A stretch of DNA of 20,000 nucleotides, taken from the NCBI GenBank assembly GCA_018649885.1, contig JABIHA010000036.1:110263-130262 (forward strand), given 5' to 3'. Position numbers and translations under genes: made by a program. This document shows, one piece after another, positions 8,062 to 19,554 of the stretch. Position 1 is the stretch's first letter. Each line of letters opens with the position of its first letter. The stretch comes from Bacteriovoracaceae bacterium (GTDB lineage Bacteria > Bdellovibrionota > Bacteriovoracia > Bacteriovoracales > Bacteriovoracaceae). Below the pieces are notes generated by a model, which was not told where the DNA came from, made no database searches, and saw only the letters and a program-made list of their open reading frames with translations.

Positions 8062-9696
8062 TTGTTTAGCAAGCAGATGAAAGTCAGAAGGTTTACCTTT
8101 TTATGGATAACCGCATTTTTTCTAGTTAATACCGCTTCCAGCAACTGGTGCCCAGCACTTACCAAACTTCAAGACGAAATTACTGATCTAGCAAAAGCAA
8201 AAGGTGAATTTGCCTTTGAACTCAAATACTCAAGCAGAATTACACATCTAAGGCATTGGGCCGGAAGACTTAGGGATGCCAAGTGGGTAAGCCCCACAGC
8301 TCTTAAATACAAAATCGAAACATTTTTAATTTCAAAAAACATATCCGGACTTAGAGGTCTAATAGCTCCTCTTTTTGGAAGGGTAGAGGTTTCCTATAAA
8401 TTTTTAGTTCACACAGAGGGACTTCTAAAAAGCATCGATGATATTGAAAAAATGCTTATCAAATCAGATGATCTGGCAGTCTCTGCTGATGAGCTGGCAG
8501 AGCTCACTTTAAGTATCGATAGGTTAACTGAAATGCTCACAAGTAGGAGTGGACTTCTCAAGCTGCTTCCAAGTAGCAAAGCTAGTGAGCTTGAAGCACT
8601 GGCCACTGGACTTAAAAGTGGCGCGATTTCTCCAAGAACTGGAGTGGCCGCTCTAGAATGGACAAGGTCTTTAAAAACCTATCTCACTTCAGTCAGACAA
8701 TACTTTTTAAAAATCTTCGGAGAAAATTTTCCTCAATATTCAATTGCTAGATCTTATATGGAAGCTTCCTTTGGAAAAAGAATGTACTCCCAAGCAAGTG
8801 GAATGCTGGAATCTGCTTTTGAGGCCCCCGCACTTAAAAAAGGCGAGTGGGAAGAGTTAGTACAAAGACTTGAGAAAATGTTAGGCTGGAATACCGAAAG
8901 GGCCACAAGCTTTCCAGCTCTTGATCCACAAAACCTTGGAAGGCCTTCACTCGAAGTTCTAGAGACATTTAAAAACTCCCACCCTCTGGCCAGAAGAGCG
9001 GCCATCTACAGAAGTTACCTTCTTGCTGTTAGACAAACAATGTCAAAAACTGTTCTAGATATTTTAGCATTTGAACGAACAGGTGATTTATTTAAAAAAT
9101 TCAAATTTTTAGATCCAGAGCTCGTTGATGATATTATGGAGGCCTTCTACCGGCTTGATGCGAGAGAATATTTTCTAGATGTCAGTGATATTGTCTACGC
9201 TGTAGAAATGACTACGGAAGCTAAGTATGCACAGTTTCTAAGAAAATTTGGCTACAAAGAAGATGATTTTCTGACAGCTTTTTTCACTAACCCTGATGCC
9301 AGACCTCTATGGAGAGAATTTAAAGACATTGCCAAGGCCACTGATCAAGATATTTTAGAGGCAATGGAAAAAGCAGAAAAAGCTGGCAGAGAAATTGGAA
9401 TTATTTCTCCCACAAAGGGCCTGGACTTTTCAAAACTTATGGCCACAAGTGTTCACCTTGCGATCGCCGGAGGTGTACTAAAAGTTGGCCATGATAAAGT
9501 CAAATCACCAATCTCAAGCGCAGCAACTTTTGCTTACCAGAAAGTCAGATCAATGATCACTGGCGATGACATGCTTTTAGACGAAAATATCCCAGTGGAT
9601 CTTCAAGATTCTGAAACGCTCGAGCGTTTAGAAAGAATGGATAAATTAGTAGACCAAACTATAAAAATAATTGATGGGCAAAATTTAGAAGAATAA
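8062..9696 (+). CDS. Hypothetical secreted protein (544 aa), apparently alpha-helical
   Basis: Long ORF with AGGAG SD at 8051-8055 before TTG. Signal-peptide-like KVRRFTFLWITAFFLVNTASS. Hydrophobic segment LMATSVHLAIAGGVL near the C-terminus. No family recognised. Confidence 0.8.
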   Translation: MFSKQMKVRRFTFLWITAFFLVNTASSNWCPALTKLQDEITDLAKAKGEFAFELKYSSRITHLRHWAGRLRDAKWVSPTALKYKIETFLISKNISGLRGLIAPLFGRVEVSYKFLVHTEGLLKSIDDIEKMLIKSDDLAVSADELAELTLSIDRLTEMLTSRSGLLKLLPSSKASELEALATGLKSGAISPRTGVAALEWTRSLKTYLTSVRQYFLKIFGENFPQYSIARSYMEASFGKRMYSQASGMLESAFEAPALKKGEWEELVQRLEKMLGWNTERATSFPALDPQNLGRPSLEVLETFKNSHPLARRAAIYRSYLLAVRQTMSKTVLDILAFERTGDLFKKFKFLDPELVDDIMEAFYRLDAREYFLDVSDIVYAVEMTTEAKYAQFLRKFGYKEDDFLTAFFTNPDARPLWREFKDIAKATDQDILEAMEKAEKAGREIGIISPTKGLDFSKLMATSVHLAIAGGVLKVGHDKVKSPISSAATFAYQKVRSMITGDDMLLDENIPVDLQDSETLERLERMDKLVDQTIKIIDGQNLEE

Positions 9697-9712: not shown

Positions 9713-12700
9713 GTGAAAGAATTATTGGTATTACTCACATTTTTGATGGCATCACAAGCGGCATTTAGCTACGGTCTTCAAGGTTCAGGTTTTTACTTTC
9801 CTGACTCACAAAGAAAGCAAAGAAAGGTCCAGCATGCCAGTGACAAGAAGCTCTATGTCAGATCAGTAAATGATCTTGAAATCTATATCGGTTCAAAAGC
9901 AAAAGAAAAAGTTTCTAGTTTTATGTTAGATATCTCTGATGCACTAGACAGAGAGGATACTTGGACAAAAAACACTTATGTCTTAAAAATGATCGAAAAA
10001 TGCTCTAAAGAAGATATAAGTAGAGGGGAGTTCTTGCAGTGTATGGCAAATGGTTACGCAAATCCTCCCAAGATCACCAGCACATCTCGAAGTGAAAGTG
10101 TTAGCTCTCTTGAAAAAACGGTAGAGTCTTACTACGAAACTCTGAGCTCAGTAATGAGAAAAGAAAATAGAAGCTTAAGAGCAGGATTAAACCCAGAACA
10201 AATAATAGCTAAATGCCAAACATTAAAAAGATACAGAACTAGATGTGAAGCTACTGCCAATACATTTTCTAAATTCTATGATGCTCTTTATGGCAAAAGA
10301 AACCTAGAAAGAGATTTCGAAGAGTTTGCTCTTTTTGCTCTTGATAGCTTTGGTCTATCTGACAAAAAGATTATGATGGGAGTCAACGGAGTTCGAGGAT
10401 ATAAATTAATCAGCTGGTATGGTCAACCTCTAAAAGGCACCTCTGAAAACCCTATTACTAGCTCAATGAAAACTGCATATCTTAGAGAAATTGATACAAA
10501 TTACTCTTTTAGGGCCGGTGAATGGGCCTGCTCAACACACGAGAGAAATTTTAAATCCGGTGAAACCACAAGAGTAACCGAAGCACTTGAAGTAGGACAG
10601 GAACTTAAGGCCTATCTCAGTATGTACCCAAAGGTGAAAAGGGCCAGTTACTTGAACCTTGCAACTGCTGTAACTATCAAAGAATTTTACAGATCATATA
10701 AGTACCAAATGGGTGCTCTTCCCAATAATAATATCATTCTTGCAAAGAACCCTGCTTGTAAGCATTACGAAGGTCAATTAAAAGAGCTCACAAAGCCCAG
10801 CATGGAGCAAGAAGTAAACAGACTTGAAAATAAGCTACGCTTCTACTCTTCAAAAGAAAAAAGAGAAAGTAGCCAGCAAAGTAGATACTTTGCTGAGAAA
10901 AACTTTGTTGATATTTATGACTTACAAAAGCAGGGGAAAAAATCAACTGCCGGAACACTTGGCGATGATCTTACAAAATACACTTTTAAAGATCTAATGG
11001 ACGCTTATAAAGACCAAAAAGAATGCTGGGGCCAAAAATCTTATTATGAAAGAGTAACAAGATCCATGAACAAAAGCGTTGATCAAGTATGGCCTCATTG
11101 TACTAAATTCTACGCGAATGCTGAGCTCACTCAGGATGTCATCAAGGAGGCGATCATGGCCCGTGAGGGACAATTTCCACTTCTAAGAATGAACTTCGAT
11201 GTAGAAAAAAGAGATAAATTTTGGGCCAAAACTTTTGAGATAACTGATGGAAGAGAGTTTTTAAACAAACTTTCAACCAGCACCTACCAAGGACTCAATC
11301 TTTATAGTAAATCAAGTCACACCAAGTTTTTAACAAAGCTTGTATTGCCACAAATGCGGTTGAAAGGAAAAGAGATGGAAGAGCTTATCTCGGATACTTG
11401 CTCTGCACGATTTTTAAATAACGAAAATCACACCTCTTGTCCTAATAACGGAAAAATGTGTTGGGAAACTCTTGTAAGCTTCACTCCTCTTGTGGATTAT
11501 ATGGAAGAAAAGTCTTCGCCTACCTTTAATGGATTTAAGGGATGCATGGAAGCTACATTTAAAAAGAGAAGAAGAAATAGAACTATCGGATTTATCGCTG
11601 GCGCCGTGGCCTGTGTAGGTGGATCTATAATAACAGCTCCAGTAACAGGCCCTTTTGCTCCCTATATTGCAGCAAGCTGCGGCCTAGGCCTTTGGCAAGG
11701 GATTGATGTTCGCGAACAAACATTGGCATTTGATAAAACAGAGCAAACCCTAAGATGCCTATCAGCAGGAAGCATTTGTAGTGATGAAGACTTCAATGAA
11801 GCGGTAAACGAATTATGGTGGGCCGTCTTTGGAAAAAAAGTTGGCCTTGTTGGTGAAACATTGGGCCTAGGAATGGCCACCAAGTTTGGGACAAGATTAT
11901 TAAAAATTCTACCTCACTTGCGTTTGCAGGACCTCTCAGATCTAAGACAACTCAGAACAGTATTTGATATCGCCTCAGGATTTGATGGTGTAGGTGACGA
12001 TTTAGCAAAATTAACCGCCAGAGAAATGGATTGGTTTGCTGAAGGGCTCGTGCGCACAGATATGGAAGACTTAGTCAGGGCCGGAAGAGCAACGGCAAGT
12101 GAAATGGAAACATTTCTCCGAAAATCTGATGTAATAGAAAAGGCCACAAGAAAGGCGATGGAGTTTGCAGACTTTCTAGAAGAGAGTGCTCCCAAGTTGG
12201 CAGCTGATCTTCCAGATGCTCTAAAAGGTATGAAACTTGAATTACTTCTCAGATCAATTCACCGAATTAACCCACTGAGAGTACCCAAAGATACTGCTGC
12301 CAAATTAAGATATTTTGAGGATCTCTTTGGAGCAGGAGAGGCGAAAGCTGTCGCCCAGGTCTACGACGAATTGTGGACAAGTGCTAGGCACGCAGATGGT
12401 CTACTAGAAATCCTGGCCAAAGCCGGGTCAAGCCTTCCAGCTGATGTTAAAGACTTCTCAAAACTACTAGATTTAAAGAAAATCAAACTCGACCCAGATG
12501 TAATGATGGCCTGGGAGAGATCGGGCGCAAATGGAACCTTTGACGAATTCGCCAAAGACGTCTTGTCCGAGAGATTATCTATGGTATACGAGCTTTCAAA
12601 AATGCACAGCATGGATGGCGGCTTATCCATCAAGGTAAGTGAGTGGTTTTTCGGGACTCTACAAAAAAGTGGAAGCTCACTTAGAAAATCCGTGGATAAT

Positions 12701-12721
12701 TTGTTAACCTCTTGTAGATAG
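9713..12721 (+). CDS. Large hypothetical secreted protein (1002 aa) with internal hydrophobic hairpin
   Basis: GAGGA SD then GTG. Sec signal MKELLVLLTFLMASQAAFS, scattered Cys, and a basic patch KKRRRNR followed by TIGFIAGAVACVGGSIITAPVTGPFAPYIAASCGLGLW. No family recognised. Confidence 0.82.
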   Translation: MKELLVLLTFLMASQAAFSYGLQGSGFYFPDSQRKQRKVQHASDKKLYVRSVNDLEIYIGSKAKEKVSSFMLDISDALDREDTWTKNTYVLKMIEKCSKEDISRGEFLQCMANGYANPPKITSTSRSESVSSLEKTVESYYETLSSVMRKENRSLRAGLNPEQIIAKCQTLKRYRTRCEATANTFSKFYDALYGKRNLERDFEEFALFALDSFGLSDKKIMMGVNGVRGYKLISWYGQPLKGTSENPITSSMKTAYLREIDTNYSFRAGEWACSTHERNFKSGETTRVTEALEVGQELKAYLSMYPKVKRASYLNLATAVTIKEFYRSYKYQMGALPNNNIILAKNPACKHYEGQLKELTKPSMEQEVNRLENKLRFYSSKEKRESSQQSRYFAEKNFVDIYDLQKQGKKSTAGTLGDDLTKYTFKDLMDAYKDQKECWGQKSYYERVTRSMNKSVDQVWPHCTKFYANAELTQDVIKEAIMAREGQFPLLRMNFDVEKRDKFWAKTFEITDGREFLNKLSTSTYQGLNLYSKSSHTKFLTKLVLPQMRLKGKEMEELISDTCSARFLNNENHTSCPNNGKMCWETLVSFTPLVDYMEEKSSPTFNGFKGCMEATFKKRRRNRTIGFIAGAVACVGGSIITAPVTGPFAPYIAASCGLGLWQGIDVREQTLAFDKTEQTLRCLSAGSICSDEDFNEAVNELWWAVFGKKVGLVGETLGLGMATKFGTRLLKILPHLRLQDLSDLRQLRTVFDIASGFDGVGDDLAKLTAREMDWFAEGLVRTDMEDLVRAGRATASEMETFLRKSDVIEKATRKAMEFADFLEESAPKLAADLPDALKGMKLELLLRSIHRINPLRVPKDTAAKLRYFEDLFGAGEAKAVAQVYDELWTSARHADGLLEILAKAGSSLPADVKDFSKLLDLKKIKLDPDVMMAWERSGANGTFDEFAKDVLSERLSMVYELSKMHSMDGGLSIKVSEWFFGTLQKSGSSLRKSVDNLLTSCR

Positions 12722-14156: not shown

Positions 14157-14700
14157 TTGATTGGAAACAGGTCAGAGTAGGGGGGAGTTCACCCGTGGGG
14201 CCCTTTTTTTTCGGCAAATTGAGGTACTACCAAATATCTCAATGACTGTTTTGGCGGCACTGGTGAGACCTTTTGCTATGTTTTAGATTTTTTCTAAGGA
14301 CGTATTCACCAAGGTTGTGAATAAATAAAATCAGTGCCATCACCACCATAATTGCTTGAATGCGATCAACCCATTTTAAGTAGAGTCCTTTTCGAAGAAA
14401 TGCTGAGTCTTTAAAAAGCTTGAACTCTGCTTCGATATTGCCGTTTCTGGACTTGTAGGAGTTGAAGATTTTCTCTGCAGGGTAGAGCTTGTCATCATAA
14501 ATATTTGTCGCCAGGATAAACTTACCTTTTCGATTTCTCGCCATTTGAATTTTGTAGTGATTTTTTTCATATGAAAGATCCAGCCGAAACCCTCTGAAGA
14601 AGGGGTAGTTTCTCTTGATATTTTGTACTACTTTTTTTGCCTCTTTTTTGGAGTCAAAAATCTTTCCATTTTTCTTTTTTATAATTTTTAAAAAGCTCAA
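14130..14700 (-). mobile_element. IS1634-family-like insertion sequence remnant, copy 1 (3' part of transposase, internally deleted, plus end sequence)
   Basis: GKFILATN, YKSRNGNIEAEFKLFKD (YREK-type signature) and LYLK.VDRIQAIMVVMALILFIH. No N-terminal half. 125-bp deletion and frameshift relative to copy 2. Putative terminal sequence at 14130-14156. Confidence 0.8.
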
Positions 14701-14851: not shown

Positions 14852-15334
14852 TTGGAAAACGGTAACCAAAATAATGAAAATGAGCTTTTTGTTGAGCCCG
14901 GTCATGAGTTCACAACCAAGTCAGATGATCCCTTTATAGATGTACTTCATAAAATAATTCGCCTCGCAGTAAAACTACTTGCTGCATTAATGGTTTTGGT
15001 CATTGTCTGGGGTATTGGTGATGTTATCTATGTCTTATATCAGCGGCTTGTTGCGCCACCATTCTTATTACTTAGCATCAGTGATATCCTGGCAACGTTT
15101 GGTGCTTTCCTTGCTGTCTTAATTGCCATAGAAATCTTTATAAATATAACAATGTATCTCAAAACTGATGTCATTCCTGTCCGGCTTGTAGTTGCGACTG
15201 CACTAATGGCAATTTCACGTAAGGTTATAATATTTGATTTTGAAAAAATTTCACCACTATATGTAGCTGGTACAGCAGCAGTTGTTTTGGCCCTCGGAAT
15301 AACTTATTGGCTAATCAGTAAAAAGACTCGATAA
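14852..15334 (+). CDS. Phosphate-starvation-inducible PsiE family membrane protein
   Basis: Four hydrophobic segments with FLAVLIAIEIFINI, LVVATALMAISRKVII and LALGITYWL. The SD AAGGAGGT at 14838-14845 points to TTG 14852 rather than the track start 14825. Confidence 0.85.
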   Translation: MENGNQNNENELFVEPGHEFTTKSDDPFIDVLHKIIRLAVKLLAALMVLVIVWGIGDVIYVLYQRLVAPPFLLLSISDILATFGAFLAVLIAIEIFINITMYLKTDVIPVRLVVATALMAISRKVIIFDFEKISPLYVAGTAAVVLALGITYWLISKKTR

Positions 15335-15377
15335 AGATCAGGAAGTTAAAAGATTAATTGAAAATGCATAATAGAGA

Positions 15378-15465
15378 TTAATTCGTTTCAACAACTCCTC
15401 GTAAAAGTCTTCCTAATATATCTGAACCTGTGATAATCTTTTTTTTGATTAGTTGTCCAAAATAA
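15378..15465 (-). pseudogene. Frameshifted C-terminal scar, probably of a DUF21/CNNM-family membrane protein
   Basis: Minus strand reads LFWTTNQK, then shifts frame in an A8 run to KIITGSDILGRLLRGVVETN*. This resembles the W..KRIITGxDILGRLLRG tail I recall from DUF21 proteins (from memory, not searched). Confidence 0.5.
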
Positions 15466-15510
15466 TCCCAATGTCAAAGATTGATTTCCTGAAAAGAATT
15501 TTTTTATAAG

Positions 15511-15535
15511 GGTGTTTATATTTAATACAAACACC
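15511..15535 (-). terminator. Inverted repeat between convergent psiE-like and dsbA genes
   Basis: Minus strand GGTGTTTGTAT-TAA-ATATAAACACC, an 11-bp stem with one G-U pair. No clear U tract. Confidence 0.35.
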
Positions 15536-15655
15536 GGTTTTGAAGAATTTTCCTTATCAATAAAATGTTTGCTGAACGATTACCTCGCCTCAAAAATTTC
15601 AATTCATTTGCTGGTTCAAAAAATAATAGTTTAAGATATTAAGTATAATAATTAG

Positions 15656-16312
15656 TCATTGATAAGAATTTTTGATTTCTTCTTGAATGGCTTTCTTCAA
15701 ATATTCTATACCAAATCTTTCAAGAGGTTTTCCATTTACAAAAAATGTTGGTGTTCTTCTAACATTCAATTGCTTCAAGTCTGAAACTTCTTGAAGTATC
15801 CTTTTGTCAATTTCTGGATCATTCATATCAGATTTCAATTTCTCTATGTTAATGCCTATTTCTGGTAAATATTCAAATATTAGATTTGGTTGAGGATTAT
15901 GATGGTTTCCCCAATTTGGTTGATATTTAAACAGTAACTCTAAAGCTTCCCAGTATTTATTTTGCTTTCGAGAAGCCTCTAAGGCCTTAATCGCAAACTT
16001 TGAATTTCGATGAAAAGGTGCATACCTTACGACCAGTTTAACCTTACCCTTAAATTCTTTGAGTAGATTTTTTATTTGGGGGTAAAACTGACGGCAACTT
16101 TCACATTCAGGGTCTAAAAACTCAATTAAGAAAACTTTTGCATTTTCATCTCCAAATTGTGGGGAATACTCTCGTACAAAAATCGTCGAATCTTTTTGAG
16201 ACAAAAAACCTAGTCGATCACTTTCATAATCTTTGTAATACTTTGATGCGAAGGCAAACAGTCCTATAAGAGCAAAGCCAGTTATTGTTAGTAATATTTT
16301 TTTATTTTTCAT
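15656..16312 (-). CDS. dsbA: DsbA-family thiol-disulfide oxidoreductase (BdbD/thioredoxin-fold type), N-terminally anchored
   Basis: EFLDPECESC active site (CxxC), cis-Pro loop RRTPTFFVNG, N-terminal hydrophobic anchor. Likely start MKNKK at 16312 (track start 16321). Overlaps the dsbB stop. Confidence 0.88.
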   Translation of the reverse strand: MKNKKILLTITGFALIGLFAFASKYYKDYESDRLGFLSQKDSTIFVREYSPQFGDENAKVFLIEFLDPECESCRQFYPQIKNLLKEFKGKVKLVVRYAPFHRNSKFAIKALEASRKQNKYWEALELLFKYQPNWGNHHNPQPNLIFEYLPEIGINIEKLKSDMNDPEIDKRILQEVSDLKQLNVRRTPTFFVNGKPLERFGIEYLKKAIQEEIKNSYQ

Positions 16313-16745
16313 AAAAATCATTCCTCTTTAAAATTAATAAAATCCCAAGTAATAAACTAAAAGATATAAAAGACAATATTGGAATGGTGATAAATCCAAA
16401 CCAATCTATGTAAACAGTAGAGCAAGAGACACCTTCTAAACATGGAGATGCGGTTTCTGGAACAATTTCATAGTGTAATAAGTTGTGATATAAGGCAATA
16501 ATCCAACCAATTAGAGCTAGTGGCAGTGTGAAAGCAAAAGTGCTTTTCGCTGTTTGAAACGATCCTACTAAAAATAAAAAAACAAGTGGGTACATAGCGA
16601 TTCTTTGATACCAACAAAGTACACAAGGTGGGAATTCCATAACTTCACTAAAAAACAAGCTTCCTAATGTCGAAAAAGATGCAATTATCCAACAACAAAA
16701 TATCAACATCCAAGACTTTTTATCTTCATTCATTTTAGGCTGCAT
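16302..16745 (-). CDS. dsbB: Disulfide bond formation protein B (BdbC-like)
   Basis: GSLFFSE, PCVLCWYQRI.MYP, second Cys pair PCLEGVSCS, WFGFITIP, four TM segments. Start at 16745 or 16733. Confidence 0.92.
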   Translation of the reverse strand: MQPKMNEDKKSWMLIFCCWIIASFSTLGSLFFSEVMEFPPCVLCWYQRIAMYPLVFLFLVGSFQTAKSTFAFTLPLALIGWIIALYHNLLHYEIVPETASPCLEGVSCSTVYIDWFGFITIPILSFISFSLLLGILLILKRNDFYEK

Positions 16746-17352
16746 CTTTTAATTCTCCATAAGACTCTCTTAAGATTGAGAATGATGATTTTAGGAAAAC
16801 AAAGGCAATTGACATACCGACAATTACATCAGGCCATTTGCTATTAAGTAGTGAAACGAGTAATGCTGCTGCTAGTACTCCAGTGTTGGCAATAATATCA
16901 TTTCTTGAACAAATCCAAGTAGATTTCATATTAATATCATCATCTCTATGTTTAAGTAGAAGTATTAAACAACTGGAATTTGCAATCAAAGCGATCACTC
17001 CAACTATTCCCATCGTTTCAGCAATTGGTACAATGTCCGACATCATTTTTGAAATTGCTTCAGCTAAAACATATAAACCAAAAATCGTGATGATAATTCC
17101 CTTTAATAGAGCAGCTGTAGCTTTCCATTTAATACTTTTATTAATTACATAAAGGCTGAACGCGTAAACGGTAGCGTCACCTAACATATCAAGAGAGTCT
17201 GCAATTAAAGCCGTTGAACTTGATAAATATCCAAATATGAACTCAATGAAAAACATTAACGTATTAATAATCAATACAATTACTAATACATTTTTTTGCT
17301 TTTCCCTTAATGCTACTAGCTCGCTAGATTTATTTTCACAGCAGCTTTTCAT
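16735..17352 (-). CDS. Cation diffusion facilitator (CDF) metal transporter lacking the cytosolic C-terminal domain
   Basis: STALIADSLDMLGDA CDF signature, NMKSTWICSRND, WPD, about six TM segments, and the protein ends just after the last TM. GGAG SD supports the start MKSCC at 17352; the 41-aa track extension is probably spurious. Confidence 0.88.
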   Translation of the reverse strand: MKSCCENKSSELVALREKQKNVLVIVLIINTLMFFIEFIFGYLSSSTALIADSLDMLGDATVYAFSLYVINKSIKWKATAALLKGIIITIFGLYVLAEAISKMMSDIVPIAETMGIVGVIALIANSSCLILLLKHRDDDINMKSTWICSRNDIIANTGVLAAALLVSLLNSKWPDVIVGMSIAFVFLKSSFSILRESYGELKDAA

Positions 17353-17365
17353 TATCTCTCCAAAG

Positions 17366-17567
17366 TTAGTGACTCTGCTCTTTTTCAGTTGATTGTTTTC
17401 TACTCTCTTGTTCCTTTCTTTCTTTCTCCTCATTAGCATGACCATCACATTCATGTTCTGGTTTTCCACACTCATTACACATTAGGGCTGTTTAAGTAGT
17501 CTTGATTGTCGTCACTGCATCCAAACATCAATAAAGATGTAATTAAAAATAAAATAATTTTTCCCAT
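17366..17567 (-). pseudogene. Small Cys/His-motif lipoprotein gene (66 aa if repaired) split by a +1 frameshift; absent from the ORF track
   Basis: AGGA SD, then MGKIILFLITSLLMFGC|SDDNQDYLNSPNV* (17567-17475, lipobox-like LMFGC). It continues in a shifted frame as MCNECGKPEHECDGHANEEKERKEQESRKQSTEKEQSH* (17482-17366). The span of 202 nt equals 67 codons plus 1 base. Confidence 0.7.
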
Positions 17568-17572
17568 TGTGT

Positions 17573-17642
17573 TTATCCTAATTAATTTGACCAACATCAA
17601 AGTCAGGTTTAAATCAAAAATTTATCTAACTAATTAGGAAAA
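17573..17642 (-). promoter_or_regulatory. SD-sequestering mRNA hairpin between the leader ORF and the lipoprotein gene
   Basis: mRNA arm UUUUCCUAAUUAGUUAGAU (17642-17624) pairs with GUCAAAUUAAUUAGGAUAA (17591-17573). Perfect 9-bp core; 17 of 19 positions pair counting two G-U. The 3' arm contains the AGGA SD 8 nt before ATG 17567. Confidence 0.7.
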
Positions 17643-17999
17643 GAGTGGTGGTTTTAGGGCAGGCTCAATAAAAGGCGACTTGTAAAAGCGTTGGAAGTCG
17701 TGCCGCAGGCTTGTGTCATCAAGTGGTGATTGAGATATATAATTTTCTATCTTTGGTAAATTTATTACAACATTGCACGCACATAAACAAAATGAGTCGC
17801 AACATTCATTATTTGAACCTTGATCTCTACTTTCGGTATTATTAGATTTATTTAACGATAAGTCTTTTGAAAGGGGTTCACAATAACACTTAGCAGCAGT
17901 CTGGAAGCTTGTATCCAATTCAAAGTTGATACCAACTTCGCTTGCAAAGCTGCTTACAAAAGAAAATAATATAAAAATTGTAATAATTTTATTTAACAT
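17634..17999 (-). CDS. Exported Cys-rich leader protein with C-terminal Pro-Pro motif (CutF/CruR/DUF2946-like architecture)
   Basis: Signal peptide MLNKIITIFILFSFVSSFA|SE, Cys motifs CYC and CCDSFCLCAC, C-terminus YKSPFIEPALKPPLFS*. First gene of the CDF-dsbB-dsbA operon. Start ATG 17999 preferred over track TTG 18008. Confidence 0.7.
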   Translation of the reverse strand: MLNKIITIFILFSFVSSFASEVGINFELDTSFQTAAKCYCEPLSKDLSLNKSNNTESRDQGSNNECCDSFCLCACNVVINLPKIENYISQSPLDDTSLRHDFQRFYKSPFIEPALKPPLFS

Positions 18000-18008
18000 A
18001 CCTAACAA

Positions 18009-18036
18009 ATTATATACTTTTACCTCGCCACGTCAA
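18009..18036 (-). promoter_or_regulatory. Near-consensus sigma70 promoter for the leader-CDF-dsb operon
   Basis: Minus strand TTGACG (18036-18031), 16-nt spacer, TATAAT (18014-18009). Only 9 nt separate the -10 from ATG 17999. Confidence 0.7.
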
Positions 18037-18126
18037 TGTTCTTTCAAGGATTTAATTAGACAATTTTAAGTGGATTTGATCTTACCATTTTTGTTGATAA
18101 ACTATCCAGTTTTGTAAGTCTTATAT

Positions 18127-18153
18127 CCGTTCTTCAGCAGTAAATTTATATTT
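18127..18153. repeat. 27-bp direct repeat, copy 2 (putative IS end)
   Basis: CCGTTCTTCAGCAGTAAATTTATATTT, 10 nt beyond the transposase stop at 18164. Matches 14130-14156. Confidence 0.85.
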
Positions 18154-18535
18154 CAGGGGAGGGTTAGGAATACCCGTATATTCTCATGGCATCACTGCCA
18201 AACATCTCAATGACTGTTTTGGCAGCTTTTGTGATGCCTTTTATTTCCCTTACCCAGTCATTTTTAAACTTTAAAGTGACGACTCTAACGTCTCGAAGCT
18301 GCTCAAACGCCCATCTAAGGGAGGGGTTGTTGGTATTTTTGCCGAGCTGGTTAGGAATAGATCTTTTGTTTTGTTTAAGATTTTTTCTAAGGACGTATTC
18401 CCCAAGATTGTGAATGAATAAGATTAGGGCCATCACAACCATAATTGCTTGAATGCGATCAACCCGTTTGAAGTAGATTCCTTTTCGGAGAAATGCTAAG
18501 TCTTTAAAAAGCTTGAACTGTGCTTCAATATTACC
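18127..18535 (-). mobile_element. IS1634-family-like insertion sequence remnant, copy 2 (transposase C-terminus plus end sequence)
   Basis: GNIEAQFKLFKDLAFLRKGIYFKRVDRIQAIMVVMALILFIHNLGEYVLRKNL...IPNQLGKNTNNPSLRWAFE, a typical IS1634 C-terminus. Similarity to copy 1 stops near 18535. Confidence 0.82.
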
Positions 18536-18684: not shown

Positions 18685-19554
18685 TTGTCACTACGAAATT
18701 TATCGGATCAAAGACTTATTGAAGATACTAAAATGTGGAATGAAAAAGAGGAACTTTGCACTCGCCAGTTCCTCCGGCACATTAATGAGGTTAATAGACG
18801 AAGGCTTTTTTGTGATGATAAGACGGGCTCACTGTTTAAATATATTCGCAAAAATTTTAATAAAAGTGATAGTGAAACAAGTCGCAGGATTTTAGCAGCC
18901 AAAACACTTAGGCATGTACCCAGTGCCGATAAAGCTTTAGCAAATAAACAGGTGACACTTACAAACCTAGCAGAAGTTGGAAGCCTAGTCGGCGATATCA
19001 AAAGCAATAAAAAGAAAAATGAAATTCTAGAAAAGATTAAGGGAAAAACCCAAACTCAAACAAGAGAGTTGGTGGAGGAAATAACCGGAAAGAAGCGTGC
19101 CACCAGGTCTAAGTCACTATGTCACTCAGATGGAAGTATTAGAATCCATCTGACTCTTAAGGGCCAAACAGCAAATGATTATCAGTTTCTCAAAGAACAA
19201 CTTTCTAATAAAGGAATTTATAAACCAGAAGAGCTTATTGGACACACAATTAACCTCGTGGCTGAATCTATCAGAAAAAAGATCATGGGTATTGGATCTA
19301 GAAAAACTAAAGTGATGACAAACTCTAGAACTATTTCAGCTGCGATAAAAAAAGCTGTCATAACAAGATCTGGTAATAAATGCGAAAACTGCAGGTCTAA
19401 ATACAACCTCCACTTTGATCACATTATCCCTTACAGTATTTCAAAATCATCGACGATTGGTAACGTGCGCCAGTTATGCTCAAATTGTAATGCAAGAGCT
19501 GCTATCATGGCGCTTTCACAGGAAAAAATGGATTTATATATAAACCAGGGTTAG
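18685..19554 (+). CDS. HNH endonuclease with long helical N-terminal domain
   Basis: GGAGG SD then TTG. C-terminal CENC...LHFDHIIPYSISKSSTIGNVRQLCSNCN (two CxxC motifs, DH..P, N, N). Basic N-terminal region LRHINEVNRRRLF...SLFKY...SRRILAAK. Confidence 0.88.
   Translation: MSLRNLSDQRLIEDTKMWNEKEELCTRQFLRHINEVNRRRLFCDDKTGSLFKYIRKNFNKSDSETSRRILAAKTLRHVPSADKALANKQVTLTNLAEVGSLVGDIKSNKKKNEILEKIKGKTQTQTRELVEEITGKKRATRSKSLCHSDGSIRIHLTLKGQTANDYQFLKEQLSNKGIYKPEELIGHTINLVAESIRKKIMGIGSRKTKVMTNSRTISAAIKKAVITRSGNKCENCRSKYNLHFDHIIPYSISKSSTIGNVRQLCSNCNARAAIMALSQEKMDLYINQG

Follow-up and report, generated by a model that had tools for sequence, protein, structure and literature searches.

A CutF-like leader with a predicted anti-Shine-Dalgarno stem upstream of a lipoprotein-CDF-dsbB-dsbA operon in Bacteriovoracaceae

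The window (the whole 20,000 nt stretch of Bacteriovoracaceae DNA analysed here) raises the question of what a short, Cys-rich open reading frame does directly upstream of an operon with a CDF transporter gene and a dsbB-dsbA pair. A sequence-only reading had proposed a ribosome-arrest switch that frees the next gene's Shine-Dalgarno (SD) sequence. The interpretation favored here, with a rough probability of 0.58, is that this open reading frame is a leader of the CutF type that would switch on lipoprotein-CDF-dsbB-dsbA when a thiophilic metal is present. The leader and its start region are as follows.

18009..18036, minus strand: sigma-70-like promoter, TTGACG-16-TATAAT, 11/12 consensus matches, best of 7 sites
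17634..17999, minus strand: leader open reading frame, ATG 17999 to TAA 17636-17634, 121 aa, CutF-like, C-terminal FIEPALKPPLFS and stop
17651-17646, minus strand: codons CCA CCA of Pro117-Pro118, predicted pause site

The promoter candidate is situated 10 nt 5′ of the leader ATG and is identified by consensus match alone. The leader N-terminus is signal-like (MLNK, an apolar core, then SFA followed by S), as judged only from inspection and a hydropathy rule. Seven Cys residues are found at positions 38, 40, 66, 67, 71, 73 and 75 and include C67xxxC71. The motifs CYC and CCDSFCLCAC and the C-terminus EPALKPPLFS before the stop are both present, and the Pro-Pro codons are found where the sequence-only reading had placed them. 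C67 and C71 lie 50 and 46 residues N-terminal to PP, the Phe codon starts at 17642, and a gap of 66 nt separates the leader from ATG 17567 of the next open reading frame.

CutF-like proteins have been defined by a length of <150 aa, a signal, PP in the last 15 residues and a same-strand neighbor at <1000 nt (PMC9973294). The leader has 121 aa, carries PP at positions 117–118 of 121, is followed on the same strand by the next gene after 66 nt, and shows a Cys/His motif (CxxxC) 46–50 residues before the proline motif, close to the roughly 45 of CutF. It has ALKPP; the motifs RAPP/RGPP and PPP are absent. A profile search of Pfam and NCBIfam gave no family match for the window leader, and membership of DUF2946 was not borne out: the PF11162 profile matches 0 of 8 family members and nothing at any leader locus in 5 genomes. 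Thus the leader appears to work like CutF but is not filed as DUF2946. A second tblastn match of the leader in the host genome (contig C21) is an opposite-strand artefact and was rejected. A metagenome scan yielded only three copies of the leader, all identical.

Of the order's 238 genomes, 56 match a profile built from an 8-row alignment (E ≤ 0.01), the weakest matches being doubtful. The profile also matches 159 clusters at 50% identity. The leader belongs to a Bacteriovoracaceae family without an existing family name; 16 of 18 C-terminal motif matches come from entries named Bacteriovoracaceae, Oligoflexia, Bdellovibrionaceae/Bdellovibrionales, Bacteriovorax or Halobacteriovorax. PP is situated exactly 3 residues from the C-terminus in 134 of the 150 relatives listed, with a background of 6 in 2947 long open reading frames of the host genome, a count that is partly ascertained since the profile itself contains PP, and that comes from relatives not independent of one another. 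All four Pro codons are used at PP, thus the constraint acts on the peptide. The motif [CH]CxxxC is found 45–52 residues before PP in 120/120 proteins having it, and at 49 residues in 86. Directly before PP, 37 of 48 loci have K and 10 have R. The last Ser is a TCN codon in 45/45 and the stop is never TGA in 48, which carries little weight because shared descent can explain both. The middle of the alignment is highly variable and the C-terminus is fixed.

There are 61 leader loci, 56 of them with a usable next start (1 was too short and 4 were dropped). The open reading frames 3′ of the leader, scanned in 53 of 58 extracted loci (3 dsb loci and 2 others omitted), consist largely of outer-membrane efflux proteins (OEP, 44), with 2 of the AcrB type, 2 of the ArsR type, 1 DUF411 and 4 unmatched. 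In a quick tree the window leader falls into a group (SH-aLRT 88) of leaders rich in Cys, most of which precede efflux genes. Tandem leaders are found at L035/L070 (G130) and L018 (G142), the first one heading a small lipoprotein or short open reading frame. At L046 and L049 the leader is followed by a small lipoprotein and then by an ArsR-type HTH protein, with no efflux gene in that place.

The operon downstream of the window leader consists of the following.

17475..17567, minus strand: 30 aa lipoprotein-type open reading frame (MFG-C17), the sole one gated directly by the hairpin
17366..17482, minus strand: 38 aa candidate Cys/His open reading frame (CNECGKPEHECDGH), in another frame and overlapping the lipoprotein end
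16735..17352, minus strand: short CDF transporter, 205 aa, N-terminal CC, PF01545 E = 4e-22, TIGR01297 over cut-off
16302..16745, minus strand: DsbB of the PRK03113 'disulfide oxidoreductase' type, PF02600, NF002849 over cut-off
15656..16312, minus strand: DsbA-like thioredoxin (CESC), PF13462 E = 4.5e-24, PF01323

The lipoprotein named earlier is indeed of the lipoprotein type, but has just 30 aa and is followed by the 38 aa sequence in the other frame, for which only weak partial matches are found; these come from two further loci, where they are placed on the other side or the other strand. The short form is identical in 4/4 sequencing runs, whose contigs all cover the site without difference; the idea of an assembly error was therefore rejected. 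The runs that cover at least half of the window are marine metagenomes. The CDF frame can be read from ATG 17475 onward, a codon overlapping the stop of the lipoprotein, and the CDF gene is preceded by an SD-like GGAG of its own. The dsbB start overlaps the CDF stop, and the dsbA-like start overlaps the dsbB stop.

On the favored metal-switch reading, the leader would be exported co-translationally via Sec, as is CutF, and the ribosome would pause at Pro-Pro while the Cys cluster is predicted to stand just outside the membrane. By analogy with CutF, EF-P (which is present in the host genome), translocon pull and disulfide-aided folding would normally release the pause, and metal bound to the Cys cluster would prolong it. 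The inducer would be a thiophilic metal, likely Cd, Zn or Pb and possibly Cu. The paused ribosome would cover the Ser and stop codons, whose predicted pairing partner is the next SD; this SD would thereby be freed and would drive translation of the 30 aa lipoprotein. Expression may then be relayed to CDF-dsbB-dsbA via the overlapping stop and start codons and via mRNA stability. The cassette would export metal and add the disulfide-forming capacity that Cd and Zn stress demands. The weakest steps are the predicted pause and the relay from a 30 aa first open reading frame to the CDF-dsb genes.

Of importance to this reading is the company kept by the dsb genes. Plasmid homologues of the window dsbB adjoin metal genes in 4/4 regions examined (of 602 matched records), namely cadR/P-type ATPase, CDF/czcCBA, CDF/SCO/arsenic or PCuAC genes. 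At L304:2173-2595, a divergent CadR/PbrR-like gene (the best NCBIfam match, under cut-off) takes the upstream slot of the leader before CDF-dsbB-dsbA. Two things favor metal sensing: Cd/Pb islands carry this dsbB-dsbA type, and at this one locus a CadR-like gene is found in the leader slot. P. putida needs DsbA to tolerate Cd (PMC12041740), and the same paper also cites a need for DsbA under Cd and Zn in E. coli.

The link of leaders to dsbB-dsbA, which the sequence-only reading had drawn from one locus, is recurrent. A rule for dsb leaders, which asks for 65–150 aa, a hydrophobic N-terminus, three or more Cys/His and a PP among the last 15 residues, was applied upstream of 138 dsbB loci (of 144 matches) and fires at 24 of them, spread over 7 genera. 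Among 4246 background genes it fires 8 times within 1400 nt and 3 times within 250 nt. Three of the 24 are of the KPPLFS type (G000, which is the window genome, G007 and G134), and of the other 21, 20 are unlike these in sequence, being leaders of the RPP type or comparable ones with KPP. Profile scans of two sets of the other dsb leaders (16 and 6) against Pfam and NCBIfam gave no family match. In a quick DsbB tree of 136 rows (2 omitted for stops) the leader label needs 7 changes, with at least 4 gains or losses forced by well-supported branches. In other families of the phylum the rule fires at 2 of 37 dsbB loci, and a third leader was spotted by eye. CxC/RPP leaders of L308 and L319, from another family of the phylum, head a DsbA-like gene and then dsbB, or dsbB directly. 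CDF-dsbB-dsbA without a leader is found at L081, L083 and L086 (genus g12), after another gene, which we take to be purA-like.

This recurrence permits a different interpretation, that the leader is a SecM-like monitor of oxidative folding whose own Cys residues are oxidised by the DsbA that it controls, in a negative feedback. In its broad form, put forward tentatively, dsbB-dsbA genes of Bdellovibrionota would have acquired their leaders several times from those of metal-efflux genes, and in a single genus such a leader would head the only dsbB-dsbA pair found. As the rival account of the switch it is unlikely. In that account DsbA would oxidise the leader Cys residues in export, the pull of folding would free the pause, low DsbA/DsbB activity would lengthen the pause and give more DsbB-DsbA, and metals would act only through blocking disulfides.

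An adjacent CDF is present in only 7 of the 24 dsb-leader loci (none in 17), as this monitor reading would have it. In genus g20 the leader is found directly before the single dsbB(-dsbA) match in 15 of 18 genomes examined, often in RluA/PrkA synteny (the commonest context, 61 of 255 neighbors scanned) and with no metal gene among the neighbors scanned. G007 has lost the lipoprotein body and the CDF yet has kept leader, stem and dsbB-dsbA; the junction (L002:1402-1452) is consistent with deletion between two GATGCAG copies. A 20 aa signal remnant overlaps the dsbB start at this junction. The dsb leaders are also His-poor (median 2–2.5 His vs 8). Disulfide-aided release has already been proposed for CutF (bioRxiv 2025.02.05.636593), and a DsbA-dependent folding force is described as reaching the ribosome (bioRxiv 2020.07.06.189464). 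However, leaders poor in His and rich in Cys are not confined to dsb genes: of 52 leaders before other genes, 10 are of this kind and mostly precede efflux genes, and the window leader nests among them. MerR, CDF or RND neighbors are found at several dsb-leader loci, the window dsbB type is cargo of metal islands, no leader precedes 114 of the 138 dsbB loci, and G065 and G079, both of g20, show the same synteny without one. The disulfide feedback raised by the sequence-only reading may still operate, but gene context, with the metal-island dsbB and the CadR-like gene, favors metals. The two readings can merge, since Cu has been proposed to block the disulfides that help release the CutF pause (bioRxiv 2025.02.05.636593).

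The predicted stem on which the metal switch would act has two arms.

17628..17639, minus strand: anti-SD (5′) arm, with Ser codon TCC, the TAA stop and 6 bases beyond, from pair probabilities
17576..17587, minus strand: 3′ arm with SD AGGA (17579-17576), the SD 8 nt 5′ of ATG 17567

The hairpin had been described as 19 nt long, with Phe-Ser-stop in its 5′ arm and the SD in its 3′ arm. In the ungapped register 17639-17621 against 17576-17594, 17 of 19 positions do pair (2 G-U, 2 mismatches), but only 9 bp are firm. In the ensemble these first 9 bp (UCCUAAUUA/UAAUUAGGA, 17639-17631) have P = 0.91–1.0, the next 3 bp (17630-17628) P = 0.5–0.6, and the remainder competes with inner hairpins. The Ser and stop codons pair with the SD region, TCC with GGA of the SD (17579-17576), but the firm stem begins at the Ser codon and not at Phe. 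The 101-nt fold by itself is unremarkable (z = −1.67, 13 of 200 shuffles equally good). The arm-arm duplex, at −12.9 kcal/mol, is equalled by only 2 of 400 control gene pairs (400 used of 437 found in the host genome).

The predicted cost of opening the ribosome binding site falls from 8.1 kcal/mol in the free RNA to 3.4 with the footprint of a paused ribosome masked. If Pro117, the first Pro, occupies the P site, a mask to +15 reaches 17637 and takes in exactly the anti-SD TCC. The stem is likewise opened by a ribosome that terminates (2.8 kcal/mol); plain coupling therefore accounts for the hairpin alone, and the stem is no proof of a pause.

Pairing of the SD with the end of the leader exceeds P = 0.5 in 27 of 56 family loci, as against 23 of 400 controls, and a strong stem is absent in 29 of 56. 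It is seen in 6 of 19 RPP-type dsb leaders and absent in 13 (19 loci left after dropping 2 duplicates); the leader-dsbB locus of G134 gives an SD pairing P of 0.38. A gain in SD opening >0.3 is found in 16 of 56 family loci vs 23 of 400 controls, and duplexes with swapped partners indicate slight specificity only (p = 0.04). Covariation, sampled over 26 KPP[LM][FY]S loci, is modest: 75% of cells are paired, 10 of 500 shuffles are as high, and slid controls give 35–51%. Two-sided changes are not above shuffles (164 and 37 of 500), and in an anchored count single stem columns are mostly equal to shuffles. A stem-loop hiding the SD within reach of the paused ribosome, as in the CutF mechanism, is predicted at this locus, with weak covariation. 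Across homologues the PP position (134/150) and the Cys-PP spacing are conserved, whereas covariation of the stem is modest. The arrest/anti-SD switch is well supported by such comparison, in the PP-to-stop and Cys-to-PP spacings, the SD pairing over controls and the ribosome geometry, and the conserved CutF-type leader with its predicted hairpin can be taken as confirmed at the sequence level; the original observation holds.

Ordinary translational coupling, or a decaying passenger, is an improbable explanation of this arrangement. Here any terminating ribosome would open the SD, as it does in prediction, and the downstream genes would use their own SDs. The first open reading frame has just 30 aa with an out-of-frame tail, the module is found between IS1634 remnants at low G+C (0.324 vs 0.383), and the host genome has a second dsbB-dsbA without a leader, all in keeping with this explanation. 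However, for coupling neither the position of PP nor its distance from the Cys motif would have to be fixed, and no part is damaged, from promoter and leader through the stem to CDF, dsbB and dsbA. In 10 family loci, moreover, a tiny lipoprotein is the normal first open reading frame.

These tiny lipoprotein-type open reading frames (20–62 aa, lipobox rule) come first behind the stem in the window (17567-17475) and at L002, L003, L006, L020, L023, L035, L037, L046 and L049 (also L022). Several end in R(F/Y)ER or RYDR. A tiny first lipoprotein may serve as a translational coupler.

The IS1634 remnants are C-terminal parts of a transposase (14239-14700 and 18164-18442), have the same orientation and flank psiE and the operon. 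Operon G+C is 32%, compared with 38% genome-wide. The second dsbB-dsbA pair is at C92:1249-2330 (64% and 49% identity). An HNH open reading frame at 18685-19554 has at least 12 other full-length copies with 79–85% identity, plus split and truncated ones, in the host genome; it looks like a mobile multicopy family and gives a weak IscB match (E = 8.5e-7, under cut-off). Two long open reading frames, 8062-9696 (544 aa) and 9713-12721 (1002 aa), show no NCBIfam match.

It is very improbable that the leader is a periplasmic metal buffer acting in trans, of the CzcI/CopL kind, with an incidental C-terminus. Weak matches to NF045615 (CzcI-like) in 3 of 8 family members (best E = 0.007) and to NF033807 (CopL) in 1 of 8 (E = 0.0095) point that way; the window leader is not above the curated cut-off for either, and NF045615 gave nothing over cut-off in 5 genomes searched. 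Against a buffer, the middle of the protein is very variable and the C-terminus fixed, the Atlas structure model is unfolded, with a pTM of 0.15, and gave nothing informative in a structure search, and neither CutF nor CopL acts in trans. Least probable of all, with only a slight chance, is a CruR-like polarity, in which the pause is the default and ligand releases it, so that metal lowers expression, possibly via Rho: CruR works so (PMC9426467), CutF-like proteins are not isofunctional and no intrinsic terminator was found in 15300-18300, but efflux-gene targets should rise with metal, the gap is 66 nt here vs 162 in cruR-bfrG, and the leader has no RAPP.

If the leader is a metal switch only, the CutF class would be extended to Bdellovibrionota, with a KPP motif, a regular Cys-to-PP ruler and a Dsb-containing target, which is useful and expected. 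The recurrent dsbB-dsbA link matters more. As judged from sequence, what is new here is the target, a CutF-like leader on dsbB-dsbA, both unusual and recurrent. Novelty is lower than the sequence-only reading had supposed, since RAPP/RGPP leaders before DsbA/thioredoxin genes have been published (PMC12992588). The disulfide idea had been anticipated: the discussion of CutF in bioRxiv 2025.02.05.636593 proposes that disulfide formation releases the pause. The dsb-leader loci would allow a test of that idea in a setting in which the regulated product is itself the oxidase, and they include natural pairs that differ in the presence of the CDF or of the leader. If the feedback is true, disulfide formation would join Sec and YidC as envelope machineries under nascent-chain feedback.

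A literature search gave no CutF-type leader on dsbB-dsbA, though the neighbor table of PMC9973294 and the source data of PMC12992588 may hold cases. 'Dsb' is absent from the main text and three supplements of PMC9973294, whose neighbor table (File S1) may list some. No proven disulfide-monitoring peptide was found in the literature search, the nearest being PMC12992588, and the search for Bacteriovorax gave no relevant paper.

Among known systems, CutF-cutO of Rhodobacter capsulatus (PMC9973294) is the closest. Both leaders are <150 aa, the signal-like N-terminus of the window leader (judged by eye and hydropathy) recalls the Sec-type signal of CutF, CxxxC is found 45 residues before the proline motif in CutF and 45–52 in the window family, and a short gap with a stem hiding the next SD is common to both, as a prediction in the window. 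The commonest neighbor in the CutF-like class is outer-membrane efflux, as for the relatives of the window leader (PMC9973294). The window leader differs in KPP(LFS and stop) where CutF has PPP, in the absence of a DUF2946 match, in an anti-SD made of Ser and stop codons, and in its lipoprotein-CDF-dsbB-dsbA target, that of CutF being a multicopper oxidase (PMC9973294).

CruR of Bordetella pertussis (PMC9426467) is likewise an upstream open reading frame with a Cys motif, a C-terminal Pro-Pro and a downstream metal gene in cis, and it arrests with the first Pro in the P site (PMC12992588). CruR is however a DUF2946 protein with RAPP, Cu-repressed through Rho and with a long gap (PMC9426467), in contrast to the 66-nt gap, predicted anti-SD stem and efflux targets of the window leader and its family. 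DUF6660 (PF20365) of Bacteroidota is a language-model look-alike at 0.95 and of similar length, a lead only, since its profile matches neither the leader nor anything else at the window locus.

RAPP/RGPP leaders, enriched upstream of DsbA/thioredoxin genes and with arrest shown for SLIV_27375 (PMC12992588), resemble the window leader in being small, exported (by prediction, for the window leader) or membrane proteins with conserved Cys, a C-terminal PP and oxidative-folding genes next to them. The window leader has LKPP (RPP in other dsb leaders) and is soluble and Cys-rich. Sections 13 and 14 of PMC12992588 show arrest and not regulation of the dsb gene, and 'Bdellovibrio' has 0 occurrences in that text.

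SecM, MifM and VemP open an SD-hiding stem by arrest near the C-terminus (bioRxiv 2023.09.02.556018), as proposed here. They monitor Sec or YidC, neither disulfide formation nor metals, and 'Dsb' and 'disulfide' have 0 occurrences in that text. If the Dsb feedback is true, the window leader would resemble these peptides in a further respect, as a substrate of the machinery that it controls.
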